The position numbers and the translations under genes were made by a program. Source: a virus. From it: a stretch of 64,000 nt of DNA. Below the pieces are notes generated by a model that was not told the origin of the DNA, made no database searches, and saw nothing but the letters and a program-made list of their open reading frames with translations. The DNA lies in IMG/VR virus record IMGVR_UViG_3300036770_008442, positions 64,255 to 128,254 of that record; one strand, given 5' to 3'. Below, one piece after another: positions 54,947-64,000 of the stretch (its first letter is position 1; every line of letters begins with the position of its first letter).

Positions 54947-56128
54947 TTAAAGCCTCTCTTCCCAAATTAGCTTATCAATAGCATCCTGAACCATCTTGGG
55001 AGTGATGGAGGTAGTACAGAGAAATCGATCCGGAGTTTCTTTAAGTCTAGGACACCAGTTCCAATCACCCCTGTCAAATTTATGGGCAGGATCATTGAAG
55101 CATCCATGACAAACAGATTTATTAATCACCCGGTAGTTCTTATGAGTAAATTCGCACTTGGGTAAAGAAAAACCAGAAATCATCACAACGGGTTTATGAA
55201 GAGCCCAAGCAAGCCAGGATAATCCAGATCCAATCCCGATAAAAAATTCACAGTGATAAAGATCTATAGCACGTTGGAGAATCCCAATTTCACCAGATTT
55301 ATCCAGAATACCGTTCAGTTCAGCTGGCTGTTTTTGAATTAAAACCGGGGTATATCCCAAAGAAATAACATAATCCACCACAGATTGCCATCCTGAAGGA
55401 TAATGCCAATGTTTGGCATTTGCAGTTGATTCTATTGCTATACAAACGTACTTACCATCAATGGTGGGCTTACTGTTTTTAATAAGATCCGGAACTTCCG
55501 GAAATAAAATATCCCCATTAAAATCAATTCCAACATGATCTCCTGCAACTTGCTGCAGAGAAATAGTTCTTGGATCTCTTTTATGTTTATTCTCATCATC
55601 CTCGTCATACCAGCCTATCCCAAATACAGCCTCTGTGTTTCTTTCCCGATATCCAGGTGGAAAAAATCTAATGTCTGGATAAAAAAGAGTCAAAAGATCG
55701 TTCCAGAAAGTTGTGACGTAAAGATCACATGAATATTTCTCTTTTAATTTGTGCACAACAGGGATCCATGCGAGAGTATCTCCTAGGGAAGAACTGTCGA
55801 AAGAAACCCCGATTTTAGATCCATGTAATGAATTTTCTAGATCGTATCGATAAACAAGTTCATCCTGGACATAGCATTCACCGATCCATGGATAAAACCA
55901 TTTTCTGAATAAACTTGTGTACATTCCTGAGGATGTATCCCCTTGATAGACAACACTCCCGGATAATTTATCGATAAATTTAACCACTGCAGAGCCAGAA
56001 GCCTTAGATCCCTTGGCATCAATTCTTGGACCATAGTCAAAAACAAATTGAAAATCAAGAGGTCTTTTGAAATGAAGATCTCCAGCTTTTTTATTATCTA
56101 AATAAACTTTAATGCCTCTGTTTTTCAT
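54947..56128 (-). CDS. Autotransporter-type protein O-heptosyltransferase (Aah/TibC, BAHT family)
   Basis: SLGDTLAWIP, STANAKHW...GW, FFIGIGSGLSWLAWA...PVVMISGFS...EF, iron-finger VCHGCFND...FD..DWNWCPR...FLCT. Confidence 0.88.
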   Translation of the reverse strand: MKNRGIKVYLDNKKAGDLHFKRPLDFQFVFDYGPRIDAKGSKASGSAVVKFIDKLSGSVVYQGDTSSGMYTSLFRKWFYPWIGECYVQDELVYRYDLENSLHGSKIGVSFDSSSLGDTLAWIPVVHKLKEKYSCDLYVTTFWNDLLTLFYPDIRFFPPGYRERNTEAVFGIGWYDEDDENKHKRDPRTISLQQVAGDHVGIDFNGDILFPEVPDLIKNSKPTIDGKYVCIAIESTANAKHWHYPSGWQSVVDYVISLGYTPVLIQKQPAELNGILDKSGEIGILQRAIDLYHCEFFIGIGSGLSWLAWALHKPVVMISGFSLPKCEFTHKNYRVINKSVCHGCFNDPAHKFDRGDWNWCPRLKETPDRFLCTTSITPKMVQDAIDKLIWEERL

Positions 56129-57180
56129 CTTAATTGAAGAATTTGAAGAATAGAATTGATATCTTTTTGAACATCCTCATAGGGACCGGACTGAGAAAGA
56201 TAGGTCACCAAAGGATTATTGTCATAGCTATCCATATAAGGCTCCAGTCTTCTCATAAGAACAGGAAGATTCCAAGAAAGAGTCTCCTTAATAACAATCG
56301 GATTTAATTCCCACACAGAAGTAAAAACGAAAAGATCCGCTGCCTGGTAAAAGTTATCCACATCATTTCTTTCGCCCCAAATTCTACAATTACCAGGAAC
56401 GTTTTTCATTAAAGGGGACCAATAGTCAGAAAAATTTGGAGCTTGATTTCCGATGAAATGAAATTCTATTGGATAATCCTCCATTTTTCTGGCAATGTCC
56501 ATCAGGTATCCTTGGTTTTTACCAGGAGTAAAAAGTCCCACATTGATAATGTGCTTCTTATGAGCATCAAGTCCCAAGAGAGATAAAGCCTCCTGCCGTG
56601 GTGGACGTTGATAATTTTCTATTGGATATTCTAAAATATCTAAAGGGGTATCCAACTCAGAAAACTTATTCACCATCCACTGATTAACCATTACAAATTT
56701 ATCAGGTCTCCAAGTTTTATCATATGGAGAAATATTTGAGCTGTGACAAGTTTCATAGATATAATAAGGACGAGAACTATCAAAGATTTTCTCTATAATC
56801 GACTCATCCACAAAAAACTCTACAAAATCATCGAAATGAATGATATCTGGACAAATATCCTGGATCAGGTCCAGAATTTTATTCTTGTCTTCACCTAGAG
56901 TAAAAAACCGATCCCCAAGCATTCCCTGAATTCGGTTTCTCTGAACCACGTATTCATCAGACACGTTGCTATATTCAATACAGAATATTTCAGCCTGATC
57001 TAGAAAACACTCTATTTTTTTACAAAGGTATTGAGGCATCCCACCAGTAGACAGATGCGGAGCAACATAGAGAATTCTGGGTCTATCCCCAGAAGCCAAC
57101 TTGATCCTATTCTCCAGATCTGCTAGAGTTTTGGATAGTCCATATTTAATTTTTCTAAGTTCTGTAGATGTATTCATCAT
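56125..57180 (-). CDS. Glycosyltransferase family 4
   Basis: PHLSTGGMPQY, NVGLFTPGKNQ, DLFVFTSVWELNPIVIKE (Ex7E). Confidence 0.85.
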   Translation of the reverse strand: MMNTSTELRKIKYGLSKTLADLENRIKLASGDRPRILYVAPHLSTGGMPQYLCKKIECFLDQAEIFCIEYSNVSDEYVVQRNRIQGMLGDRFFTLGEDKNKILDLIQDICPDIIHFDDFVEFFVDESIIEKIFDSSRPYYIYETCHSSNISPYDKTWRPDKFVMVNQWMVNKFSELDTPLDILEYPIENYQRPPRQEALSLLGLDAHKKHIINVGLFTPGKNQGYLMDIARKMEDYPIEFHFIGNQAPNFSDYWSPLMKNVPGNCRIWGERNDVDNFYQAADLFVFTSVWELNPIVIKETLSWNLPVLMRRLEPYMDSYDNNPLVTYLSQSGPYEDVQKDINSILQILQLR

Positions 57181-57452
57181 GAATTTTTAGTGTAAACTCC
57201 AGTGGCAAAATCCAACTGGCCTTCTCCATATCTACCTACAATATCTTCGGTTAGAGATCTTTCTAATTCACCAAGTTCAAGAGATTTTTTAAGCCCCTCT
57301 GAAATATTATCACTCAGAACCTGGAGTTCATTTTCTAGGAAATACTTTTGAATATTAAGTTTTCCAATGATCTCGACATTTTCCCTGATTTGATCTCTTA
57401 GGTCAATGATCGATTTTAGTTCATCCTCCGATAGTTTGATTTCGTTTTCCAT
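57177..57452 (-). CDS. Small coiled-coil hypothetical protein
   Basis: Ends RYGEGQLDFATGVY; start likely MENEIK at 57452, after GAAATA-N17-TATAAT (57467-57495). Confidence 0.7.
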   Translation of the reverse strand: MENEIKLSEDELKSIIDLRDQIRENVEIIGKLNIQKYFLENELQVLSDNISEGLKKSLELGELERSLTEDIVGRYGEGQLDFATGVYTKNS

Positions 57453-62698: not shown

Positions 62699-62699
62699 T

Positions 62700-64000
62700 T
62701 TACGGTATAACTATCCAATCTTCTGAAGGATTAAATCTAAAAATAGCAGAATTGGAGCCTCTTCCTGAGGAATAAGTGTCAACACATCTCCCAATTACCC
62801 GAACAACATCTCCAGACCCAGAAGGTTTGGTGAATGTCATCTTGCCAGCAGTTGTACTAACATAGACAGGAGATCCAACAGTAGCAGTTCCTTCATAAAG
62901 AGTTGAATCTAGACCAACATATCCGCTAGTAATAAAATAGTTTGTTGTCGCAGTTTCAACAGCCATGCCTATAGTCCCTGTCGAAGTGGAAGTTGCATCT
63001 GCATCAGCTCCTACCCATCCACCAGTTCCAAAATTATAAATCCCTCCGGCAGTGCAAGAAATAGCAGTTCCTAAACGAATTACATCACAGGATTGATGGT
63101 ATATTTGGGTAGTAGCTCCTGCTGCACTATCCCAATTTAAATCTAATAAGTTTGTTAAAATTCCACTATACCCCGTAATTGAAATATCATTAGTTAAGGA
63201 AGTGATTAAAGTATTTGTCTGAATTTGAGTACCAACTATTAAAGTACTCCCATCATAAGTTAAATTAGTCTCTCCTGTTATGGTATTGCTATCGGTAAAG
63301 GTTGGTATTCTATCAGCTGCTCCGTTTGTCGCATCTACTAGGGTCGTTCCCCAAACCCTTGAATCAATTTCATCAGTTTTCAAATATCCATCAGAGTCCA
63401 GTATAACTACGGAGTTATCTACTCCAGCCGTCATAGTAGGGGTATAAAGAGGTAATGTACCAGATATAGAAAGAGATGTTCCGTTGAAAGTGAGATTGCT
63501 TTCAACAGTTCCTGTACCATCGCCATCATATGTAATAACACCATTTGCTGTTGTTCCATCTAGCGGGAGAATTCCACTAGTGCCAGAAGTTCCACTAGAT
63601 CCGGATGACCCACTCGATCCGGAGGGACCACTAGAACCAGAAGTTCCAGATGACCCAGAAGATCCGCTCGAACCACTAGAACCAGATGGTCCAATTGAAC
63701 CAGAGGTTCCACTAGAACCACTTGAACCGCTAGATCCAGAAGAACCAGAGGTTCCAGCCGATCCGGAAGATCCACTAGATCCCGAAGATCCGCTTGACCC
63801 AGAAGAACCTGAGGATCCGCTAGATCCAGAGGATCCTGAGGTTCCACTAGATCCCCGTGTTCCACTAGAACCACTAGATCCTGAAGATCCGCTAGATCCA
63901 GAAGAACCAGAGGTTCCAGCCGATCCGGAAGATCCACTAGATCCCGAAGATCCGCTTGACCCAGAAGAACCTGAAGATCCGCTAGATCCAGAGGATCCTG
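62700..64000 (-). CDS. Tail fibre / virion protein with Gly-Ser-Ser collagen-like repeats, partial (starts beyond the window end)
   Basis: The frame of ORF 62700..63434 stays open to 63998 and reads GSSGSSGSSGSAGTSG...; Thr/Gly-rich beta C-terminus. Confidence 0.85.
   Translation of the reverse strand, partial: GSSGSSGSSGSSGSSGSSGSSGSSGSAGTSGSSGSSGSSGSSGSSGTRGSSGTSGSSGSSGSSGSSGSSGSSGSSGSSGSAGTSGSSGSSGSSGSSGTSGSIGPSGSSGSSGSSGSSGTSGSSGPSGSSGSSGSSGTSGTSGILPLDGTTANGVITYDGDGTGTVESNLTFNGTSLSISGTLPLYTPTMTAGVDNSVVILDSDGYLKTDEIDSRVWGTTLVDATNGAADRIPTFTDSNTITGETNLTYDGSTLIVGTQIQTNTLITSLTNDISITGYSGILTNLLDLNWDSAAGATTQIYHQSCDVIRLGTAISCTAGGIYNFGTGGWVGADADATSTSTGTIGMAVETATTNYFITSGYVGLDSTLYEGTATVGSPVYVSTTAGKMTFTKPSGSGDVVRVIGRCVDTYSSGRGSNSAIFRFNPSEDWIVIP
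63576..63998 (-). repeat. About 47 Gly-X-Y triplets (mostly GSS/GTS), with a 112-nt near-perfect internal duplication
   Basis: 9-nt periodicity; 63727-63838 matches 63889-64000 with 1 mismatch (offset 162). Confidence 0.9.

Follow-up and report, generated by a model that had tools for sequence, protein, structure and literature searches.

A phage gene cassette with an Aah/TibC-like heptosyltransferase that may O-glycosylate Ser/Thr-rich collagen-like fibers

Introduction

To our knowledge, enzymes of the autotransporter O-heptosyltransferase (BAHT) family have been described only in a few Proteobacteria, where they modify autotransporter adhesins and are associated with virulence. The closest described systems are TibC-TibA of enterotoxigenic Escherichia coli (ETEC) and Aah-AIDA-I of diffusely adhering E. 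coli (DAEC) (structures 4RAP and 4RB4). Here, we analyze a BAHT-family gene (54947..56128) in a 64,000-nucleotide stretch of viral DNA, hereafter the window, which is the second half (positions 64255-128254) of the 128,254-bp IMG/VR viral record IMGVR_UViG_3300036770_008442 (CheckV completeness, 46%). The end of the window coincides with the contig end, and its minus strand carries every gene of interest. Our computations show that BAHT genes pair, statistically and contextually, with Ser/Thr-rich Gly-X-Y genes across several lineages. We consider it fairly probable that the window enzyme belongs to a cassette with which the phage O-glycosylates its own Ser/Thr-rich collagen-like fibers, probably with heptose; the acceptor, the sugar, the order of the steps, the location on the virion, and the biological role are what we infer from this context.

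In the part of the TibC study available to us, the enzyme modifies Ser and not Thr, at mapped sites (NS313GG and VS322GT) in which Ser is followed by Gly, it is active on synthetic peptides, and BAHT genes are usually followed by the gene of their autotransporter substrate (PMC4358343). The window enzyme shares with TibC and Aah the family, the fold, the catalytic Asp, the sugar-binding Thr/Lys/Arg/Trp set, and the four-Cys finger; like them, it is encoded beside a repetitive Ser-rich surface-fiber gene and is, by prediction, a cytoplasmic enzyme. It differs from them in being phage encoded, in having no autotransporter and, as its neighbor, a collagen-like stalk instead of a β-helix, in the deletion of its thumb tip, in a Gly at position 300, and in a conserved GT4 glycosyltransferase partner, which is fused to the enzyme in other phages.

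A further parallel is BclA, which forms collagen-like (Gly-Pro-Thr)n filaments on the exosporium of Bacillus anthracis and has O-linked oligosaccharides and a globular C-terminal domain. As a surface "hair" whose collagen-like stalk carries O-glycans on Thr/Ser, BclA is the nearest functional analogy, but it relies on other transferases and other sugars (rhamnose and anthrose), has a proline-rich repeat, and covers a spore, not a virus. Virion glycosylation is described for mycobacteriophages, where glycans sit at the C termini of capsid and tail-tube subunits (Freeman et al. 2023, cited in PMC12619734). As summarized in the available part of that source, this system resembles the one proposed here in that phage glycosyltransferases decorate the phage's own virion proteins, and it differs in having no BAHT, heptose pathway, or collagen-like fiber. 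For large aquatic phages with Bacteroidota hosts, four core glycosyltransferase groups were reported, in a text whose available part contains neither "heptos" nor "collagen" (PMC12619734, 2025). Finally, jumbo phages and cyanophages carry clusters that, like the window, combine several glycosyltransferase families with PfkB-type sugar kinases; in the part of the study available to us, these are read as devices for host capsule or lipopolysaccharide (LPS) modification, whereas the core enzyme of the window is of the protein-modifying BAHT type and lies in a structural module (Iyer et al. 2021; PMC7824862). Our literature search found no report linking BAHT enzymes with phages or with collagen-like proteins and none on the cultured Microcystis phage Mel-JY01, which is discussed below. 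What the window adds is a stand-alone kinase whose link with the cassette is restricted to one clade, a sulfotransferase fusion, a picture of cassette insertion, and the controls.

The BAHT-family enzyme

The 393-aa product of 54947..56128 (minus strand), the core enzyme of the cassette, aligns with positions 9-373 of the 374-position family model TIGR04414 (hepto_Aah_TibC), with an E value of 1.8e-73 and a score of 247.6 bits against a cut-off of 200, and it matches TibC (4RAP) at E 7.4e-52 with an identity of about 30%. In TibC, Asp-110 is the catalytic base, Thr-226, Lys-230, Arg-286, and Trp-305 bind the sugar, and Cys-339, Cys-342, Cys-358, and Cys-370 form an iron finger (PMC4358343). 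Alignment to TibC gives D117 as the catalytic equivalent, T235, K239, R286, and W305 as the sugar-binding equivalents, and C340, C343, C359, and C371 at the positions of the finger, for which iron binding is putative. An earlier sequence-only reading of this DNA, which had named a TibC/Aah signature with four iron-finger cysteines and pointed to a profile search against the autotransporter O-heptosyltransferase family, was thus right about the enzyme. At the site of stereoselectivity, where TibC carries Pro-300 and AAH carries Ser-294 (PMC4358343), the window enzyme has neither residue but Gly (position 300).

An AlphaFold model built on 12 phage sequences (mean predicted local distance difference test [pLDDT] score, 85.9) shows the fold expected for the family, an N-terminal β-barrel followed by a GT-B catalytic domain, and aligns with the TibC chains of 4RAP and 4RB4 with template modeling (TM) scores of 0.82 to 0.85 over 380 to 388 columns. 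For the LPS heptosyltransferases WaaC and WaaF, the corresponding values are 0.43 to 0.51 (TMq) and 0.54 to 0.61 (TMt), and the heptosyltransferase I (LPS) family scores 20 bits on the window protein. By sequence, key residues, and predicted fold, the enzyme is a true member of the BAHT family, in which we found 3533 relatives at E <= 1e-20, the closest being nearly all metagenome proteins.

A scan of viral contigs found 107 IMG/VR stretches that encode a BAHT relative, and 80 of these loci were kept for the analysis of relatives. The 39 closest, with BAHTs 53 to 65% identical to that of the window, are referred to below as the window clade. The Asp, Thr, Lys, and Trp residues and the four Cys residues are invariant in all 49 unique phage BAHTs; Arg-286 is retained in 27 of them, including all 21 unique BAHTs of the window clade.

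Collagen-like fiber genes

The proposed acceptor is encoded at 62700..63998 (minus strand) by a gene that is open at its 5' end, where the contig ends (64000), and that matches the Pfam Collagen family (PF01391) at E 2.2e-21. The known part of the protein starts with a single uninterrupted run of 48 Gly-X-Y triplets, close to the 47 or so Gly-Ser-Ser-type triplets first counted. X is Ser in 37 triplets, Thr in 8, Pro in 2, and Ile in 1, and Y is Ser in 43, Ala in 2, and Arg, Ile, and Leu in 1 each, so that the sequence-only description holds in the sense that X and Y are almost all Ser or Thr. With 2 Pro residues in 96 X/Y positions, the repeat is atypical for a collagen-like protein, and the triple helix of the stalk is a prediction. 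The 288-aa nonrepeat part that follows the triplets has no Pfam match, including Peptidase_S74 (PF13884), and its single-sequence fold prediction has a pLDDT of 30.

A more complete picture comes from a relative, G006 (locus L408), in which two collagen-like genes precede the cassette, one of at least 1339 aa (cut by the contig end) and one of 2845 aa (G006:C1, 4023-12560). In the latter, 122 aa at the N terminus are followed by 561 uninterrupted triplets (X: Ser 461, Thr 95; Y: Ser 547). The remaining 1040 aa carry, at their end, a Peptidase_S74 intramolecular-chaperone domain (PF13884; E 4e-11). This domain occurs in phage tail fibers and spikes. Because the G006 repeat protein ends in it, we class the Gly-X-Y repeat proteins as fibers on sequence grounds. 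With the collagen rise of about 0.29 nm per residue, the 561-triplet stalk would be an estimated 0.5 μm long. After the triplets, the same fiber carries about 900 aa of NNVA[IV]G..A-type, Asn-Thr-Thr-rich repeats, which to our eye presumably resemble adhesin head repeats.

Collagen-like segments of another kind are present outside the window. Two adjacent proteins of the record (562 aa, G000:C1:22079-23767; 506 aa, 23778-25298) have a segment of 10 to 11 triplets near the N terminus that is rich in Pro, Gln, Glu, and Lys and not in Ser/Thr. Probably also fibers, they would offer a natural internal control of acceptor specificity. In the Microcystis phage Mel-JY01 (L002; PP395634.1), a frame on the plus strand (2-3052), open from the first bases, encodes at least 1016 aa with Gly-Ser/Thr-Ser repeats. 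GenBank has minus-strand hypothetical proteins there (1-651 and 739-2298) and a short plus-strand coding sequence (2519-3052); the collagen-like fiber gene of this phage is probably misannotated and split by the record start.

Pairing of BAHT with Gly-X-Y genes

The association between the enzyme and such repeats was examined in both directions. For the first, viral contigs were chosen only by the DNA pattern (GGNWSNWSN)x8, which gave 79 loci and 72 searchable records. BAHT is present in 23 of the 72 (E <= 1e-10), with 21 of these 23 scoring above the cut-off, and in 6 of the 11 records that are at least 90% complete. A control sample was drawn via an arbitrary 14-mer. Of its 80 listed loci, 50 on the longer contigs (14 kb or more, with one exception) were selected by eye, a few of equal length being left out, and 49 were searchable; here, BAHT was found in 0 of 49 records (Fisher p = 1.7e-6) and in 0 of 11 near-complete ones. 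In the other direction, Gly-X-Y runs of at least 8 triplets occur in 49 of 80 BAHT-centred loci (42 Ser/Thr-rich) versus 1 of 80 control loci (none Ser/Thr-rich), the control loci holding about half as many bases. When BAHTs are clustered (124 of 130 loci, matches shorter than 250 residues being left out), the pairing turns up in 24 of the 50 clusters formed at 70% identity and in 7 of the 13 formed at 50%. The co-occurrence of the enzyme with Gly-Ser-Ser-repeat fibers, which the sequence-only reading had offered as a check, is therefore found.

Individual loci tell the same story. Of the 39 clade contigs, 36 end within 10 kb upstream of BAHT, and 27 of these 36 end inside the repeat, as the window does; assemblies break in collagen-like repeat genes. 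In a complete 253-kb record (G018), the GT4-BAHT gene is directly upstream of the gene of a 1130-aa protein with 188 G[ST][ST] triplets, and in Mel-JY01 the gene of the GT4/BAHT protein lies 1.7 kb downstream of the collagen-like gene. The pairing extends to bacteria: in a Methylobacter sp. chromosome (NZ_CP197401.1; L420, 8998-11182) and a Methylococcaceae metagenome-assembled genome (MAG) (L446, 8799-11038), a repeat gene is followed immediately by a BAHT gene, the Methylococcales repeat proteins being 281 or 316 aa long with Gly-Thr/Ser-Ser repeats. In Arenicellales and other gammaproteobacterial MAGs, Gly-Ser-Ser genes flank BAHT, and in Bordetella sputigena a 425-aa open reading frame (ORF) of GSSGSG repeats on the opposite strand overlaps the 3' end of the BAHT ORF. 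Caballeronia- and Burkholderia-type BAHT loci have no Gly-Ser/Thr repeats. Since BAHT genes usually precede their substrate gene, according to the available part of PMC4358343, these arrangements point to the collagen-like gene as the substrate here.

The pairing also bears on whether the system acts on the host instead, the transferases and the kinase altering host LPS, capsule, or adhesins, for example against superinfection, with the fiber genes as bystanders. Jumbo-phage glycosyltransferase clusters with PfkB kinases and nucleotidyltransferases have been read in terms of host-surface or capsule modification (PMC7824862, in the part available). Domains of the GT2, GT4, GT9-like, and sulfotransferase types are typical of polysaccharide synthesis, the product of the kinase described below is an LPS-core precursor, and no late-type motif lies in the block. 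However, the enzyme groups with the protein-modifying BAHTs and not with the LPS heptosyltransferases, in both structural comparison and bit score; BAHT is enriched beside Ser/Thr-rich Gly-X-Y genes and forms two-gene units with them in bacteria; and the cassette lies within the structural module, packed against fiber genes, in a record with no autotransporter. Indeed, the autotransporter β-domain PF03797 has 0 matches in the 128-kb record, which extends to the whole record what had been noted for the window. We regard host-surface remodeling as an improbable explanation.

The GT4-BAHT cassette and its probable insertion site

The window contains a T4-like structural module with two tail-tube genes, a 1085-aa sheath, a large terminase (TerL), a neck-like 847-aa protein, and a T4-type portal (29061..30665; Portal_T4, 201 bits). 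The 847-aa protein (52337..54880, minus strand) is a neck or head-closure-like structural protein by a PF11649 match (E 5.7e-05; 23 bits, cut-off 25), a match to phrog_679 (head closure Hc2; E 1.2e-06), and synteny. Its gene follows the cassette directly in every clade locus, and the order BAHT-neck-p255-TerL-sheath is found in all 39.

Upstream of BAHT and overlapping it by 4 nt is the gene of a 351-aa GT4 glycosyltransferase (56125..57180, minus strand; PF13692, 42.2 bits; PF00534, 40.3 bits), which is preceded by the gene of p96 (57177..57467, minus strand), a 96-aa protein with no significant family. Of the 39 clade loci, 38 have GT4 and 37 have p96, the misses being cut by contig ends, and a GT4 gene is found near BAHT in most of the distant loci as well. 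A terminase-centred sample yielded 8 more distant clade loci without GT4-BAHT at the window site; in 7 of these, p96 abuts the neck gene. Because p96 is next to the neck gene where the pair is missing, GT4-BAHT behaves as an inserted cassette whose insertion point p96 would mark. The genes upstream of GT4-BAHT vary among relatives.

In two genomes without the pair at this site (G024 and G028), BAHT is part of a 775- to 781-aa ORF elsewhere; the G024 protein also resembles GT4 weakly (E 4.7e-4, short of the Pfam cut-off). GT4-BAHT fusion proteins of 700 to 771 aa occur in other phages (700 to 715 aa in L403 and L404), two phage proteins (1213 and 1527 aa) have GT4, FkbM-methyltransferase, and BAHT parts in one chain, and Mel-JY01 encodes a 1226-aa protein of the GT4/BAHT type, with a BAHT part of 317 bits. 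Such gene fusions suggest a shared pathway for GT4 and BAHT.

The constant neighborhood of BAHT and the neck gene could be read as a sign of a different virion acceptor, either β-rich, noncollagen fiber parts or, for example, the 847-aa neck protein, in place of the Gly-Ser-Ser stalk. The known BAHT substrates are β-helical passenger domains (PMC4358343, in its available part), BAHT adjoins the neck gene in 39 of 39 clade loci, the G006 fiber has its Asn-Thr-Thr-rich repeats, and some BAHT phages have no strict repeat. However, the position of p96 where the cassette is missing speaks for an insertion site and not a functional pair, and TibC, in the same source, modifies Ser and not Thr (PMC4358343). 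Moreover, the statistical link is with the Gly-X-Y repeat itself and includes small bacterial proteins that are little beyond the repeat, and the C-terminal part of the G006 fiber has no match to a Pfam adhesin-head family at E <= 0.01. Such an acceptor seems to us unlikely.

Putative heptose supply

Immediately downstream of the portal gene, and ahead of a DNA ligase gene, the window encodes a stand-alone, 330-aa kinase of the HldE-domain-I type (28058..29050, minus strand), as the sequence-only reading had recognized. Its match to TIGR02198 (rfaE_dom_I) covers positions 4-313 of the 315 in the model, with E 4.6e-90 and 301.9 bits (equivalog cut-off, 345); an unrelated family comes next, 230 bits lower (72.6 bits). 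Full-length homologs were found in 8 of the 28 long records searched, all in the window clade, and three more records have shorter, weaker matches; in the records checked, the kinase is 26 to 27 kb from BAHT. The complete clade member G024, without the cassette at the window site, is also without the kinase. In the close relatives G002 and G007 (the records of L025 and L040), at about 35.5-36.9 kb, a 265-aa kinase ORF matches in two pieces (73 and 55 bits), compared with about 330 aa at full length, and may be decaying or a variant.

Genes for other steps were sought by family searches. In the 128-kb record, gmhA, gmhB, hldE domain II, and hldD had 0 matches. A GmhA-type gene is present in clade record G022 (NF001628, 235.9 bits; cut-off, 265), and SIS_2 matches a full-length protein in G020 (77.7 bits) and, partially, a 90-aa ORF in G021 (32.6 bits). 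Five clade records gave no GmhB-type phosphatase, HldC, or HldD, with one marginal epimerase match (21.5 bits, G020). The sequence-only proposal that the phage "makes or boosts" ADP-heptose thus splits: the window clade would encode at most the first two committed steps, for which boosting is a fair word and making is not.

We also considered nucleotidyltransferases. The only CTP_transf_like match in the window record is a 655-aa ORF at its far end; the same family matches a 653- to 707-aa ORF in each of five clade records and a 118-aa protein of the relative G005. None could be called HldC, and the best match of the G005 protein is a nicotinamide mononucleotide (NMN) adenylyltransferase relative. 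The "cytidylyltransferase like protein" of Mel-JY01 (639 aa) was ruled out as HldE, with no NCBIfam family matched. In the first half of the record, outside the window, a RuBisCO-like protein (PF00016, 106 bits) is encoded in the same orientation as a PF00483 sugar-phosphate nucleotidyltransferase (G000:C1:11969-16971; L160); the GmhA-type isomerase of G022 lies at about the corresponding place, as estimated from relative gene positions.

These results leave room for a sugar other than heptose, with the same cassette and acceptor and a kinase that serves an unrelated purpose. The kinase falls below its equivalog cut-off and is about 26 kb away, the rest of the pathway was not found, Arg-286 varies among phage BAHTs, position 300 is Gly, and a PF00483 sugar-phosphate nucleotidyltransferase is encoded elsewhere in the record. 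On the other hand, the four sugar-binding residues are kept throughout the window clade, the stand-alone BAHT occurs in this clade together with the kinase and a GmhA-type isomerase, G024 lacks both the cassette at the window site and the kinase, and the nearest competing kinase family is far behind in score. We therefore give a nonheptose sugar very little weight. Since Arg-286 is kept in the window clade and replaced in 22 of the 49 phage BAHTs, heptose appears best supported for this clade and less so for other lineages.

Proposed pathway

In the pathway that we favor, glycosylation would take place in the cytoplasm of the infected cell, on long proline-free, Ser/Thr-rich collagen-like fibers. 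BAHT would move heptose from ADP-heptose onto the Ser hydroxyls of the (Gly-Ser/Thr-Ser)n stalk, in which every Y-position Ser precedes Gly, like both mapped TibC sites. The GT4 partner would extend the heptose or prime further serines, and the variable upstream genes (GT2 and the sulfotransferase with its possibly GT9-like half) would tailor the glycan. The HldE-type kinase, together with a GmhA-type isomerase in relatives, would push host sedoheptulose-7-phosphate into the first committed steps, and the host would supply GmhB, the adenylyltransferase and, if used, HldD. Triple-helix stabilization, protease shielding, and adhesion are possible roles of such a glycan.

Several observations weigh against this pathway. 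As to the enzyme, 22 of 49 phage BAHTs have another residue in place of Arg-286, and other lineages may use another donor. The tip of the TibC β-hairpin thumb (Phe-265 and Val-266) is needed for the dodecamer and for activity (PMC4358343), and the segment with these residues falls in a 9-residue gap of the window BAHT, most phage BAHTs being as short at this place. With its thumb tip deleted, the phage enzyme may work differently, in another assembly state, and we place it in a divergent subgroup of the sequence family and do not count it among the typical dodecameric autotransporter BAHTs. As to the pairing, 31 of the 80 BAHT-centred loci have no Gly-X-Y run in the DNA examined, and 2 of 5 near-complete BAHT-bearing records (G013 and G020) have no strict repeat match at all. 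Conversely, the clade members L144, L149, and L152 have Gly-Ser-Ser runs without the cassette at the window site; of the two records searched, that of L144 (G024) has a fused BAHT elsewhere and that of L152 has none in the 50 kb examined. The counts are not independent, since related phages have features in common, and the control records are smaller and from mixed habitats, so a "large aquatic phage" background could contribute. As to the sugar, the kinase is about 26 kb from the cassette and was not found in complete BAHT-bearing phages of other lineages (G014 and G018), and only one of the five pathway enzymes (GmhA, kinase, GmhB, adenylyltransferase, and HldD) is encoded in the record, at its completeness of 46%. 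Finally, the late-type motif GATATATA, described below, does not occur inside 54947..64000.

A bolder version of the proposal, which we put forward tentatively and with more doubt than confidence, is that Ser/Thr-rich, proline-free collagen-like fibers are a second class of Aah/TibC substrate, perhaps the numerically dominant one. Phages, along with some bacteria such as Methylococcales, would place heptose on nearly every triplet, in stalks as long as that of 561 triplets, and the O-glycan would take the role of hydroxyproline, stabilizing and shielding the helix, as a sulfated "hair" on jumbo phages; the thumb-less enzymes would be nondodecameric and coupled to GT4.

If the favored pathway is correct, it would extend protein O-heptosylation to a new class of acceptor and mean that large aquatic phages glycosylate their virions in a new way. 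It would offer an explanation for how proline-free collagen-like stalks hundreds of nanometers long could be stable and would give the ADP-heptose-pathway genes of phages a concrete use. Glycan-coated fibers would also affect phage adsorption and protease resistance. The cultured carrier Mel-JY01 makes the idea directly testable.

Neighboring genes of the block

From the fiber gene to BAHT, ten co-oriented genes follow one another with overlaps or gaps of at most 34 nt. One nucleotide downstream of the fiber gene is that of a 185-aa protein (62141..62698, minus strand) without a Pfam or PHROG family; ORFs 45 to 47% identical to it occur in L003 to L005, in L003 and L005 after a Gly-X-Y run at the contig end. 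It is followed, all on the minus strand, by genes for a 117-aa protein (61764..62117) without a Pfam family; a 169-aa protein (61245..61754), whose C-terminal 80 aa match phage families of no assigned function (phrog_6034, E 1.1e-18; phrog_14311; phrog_10241); and a 416-aa RCC1-repeat (β-propeller) protein (59995..61245; PF25390, 202 bits; PF00415, 177 bits).

Next come a 602-aa fusion protein (58190..59998, minus strand) and a 256-aa GT2 glycosyltransferase (57502..58272, minus strand; PF00535, 34.6 bits, cut-off 23.3). The N-terminal sulfotransferase domain of the fusion (residues 6-210; PF13469, 68.6 bits; PF00685, 50.2 bits) exceeds the Pfam gathering score. Its C-terminal half has no Pfam match at E <= 0.1 and shows an ESM feature similarity of 0.97 to clusters in which 23 to 54% of the members have PF01075; it may be GT9-like, which we treat as a lead. 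No methyltransferase domain was found in the block (Pfam E <= 0.1 for p255, p96, and the C-terminal half of the 602-aa protein; E <= 0.01 for the 185-, 117-, and 169-aa proteins). Of the co-oriented block described in the sequence-only reading, the GT4, GT2, sulfotransferase, and fiber genes are thus backed by Pfam, the GT9 half is kept as a lead, and the methyltransferase was not found.

The order RCC1 then sulfotransferase recurs in four distant loci (L063 and L078 to L080; BAHT 37 to 39% identical), and in L079 and L080 GT2 follows as well, which suggests that RCC1-sulfotransferase-GT2 is a mobile module. In G005 (L401; G005:C1:7000-13000), directly upstream of p96-GT4-BAHT, positions 2540-3326 encode an APS kinase (TIGR00455, 80 bits) and the 118-aa protein, a HIGH-family nucleotidyltransferase; a sulfotransferase-like match (26% identity) lies further upstream of the GT4-BAHT pair. 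The APS kinase looks like a phage-borne supply of 3'-phosphoadenosine 5'-phosphosulfate (PAPS) for sulfation. Because of the window sulfotransferase and the G005 APS kinase with its sulfotransferase-like match, sulfation of the glycan is plausible; for methylation, which had been proposed along with it, no methyltransferase was found in the window.

Candidate promoter motifs

In the 34-nt gap before p96, there is only a loose middle-type variant with a TATAAT-like element, from which we draw no conclusion. The middle-type promoter GAAACT-N16-18-TAAAAA has 3 exact matches in the window, none of them in the block, and TATAAATA, which we take to be the T4 late promoter consensus, is not enriched (7 matches versus 7.6 expected). 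A different motif, GATATATA, has 16 matches in the window, all on the coding strand, versus 3.84 expected. They lie mostly in short gaps upstream of structural genes (sites include 12228, 16077, 19688, 36594, 43912, 49670, 49723, and 54924), and the motif is probably the late-promoter core of this phage. The copy at 54924..54931 (minus strand), in the 66 nt that separate BAHT from the neck gene, would mark the start of the next structural transcription unit. Because none lies inside the block, the block looks like one unit with a promoter beyond the contig end. A search of sequencing runs returned no RNA run for this part of the record.

Source of the record

The terminase shares less than 40% identity with its counterparts in huge uncultured phages, Sphingomonas phage PAU, Tenacibaculum phages, and Lak phages. 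The structural module of the window is syntenic with a 70-kb contig assigned to a MAG labeled uncultured Saprospirales (L409; CALAZP010000278.1; identities: TerL, 79%; sheath, 81%; BAHT, 61%); the contig ends in a Gly-X-Y run. It may be a phage contig that was binned there, or it may be a weak hint of a Bacteroidota host.

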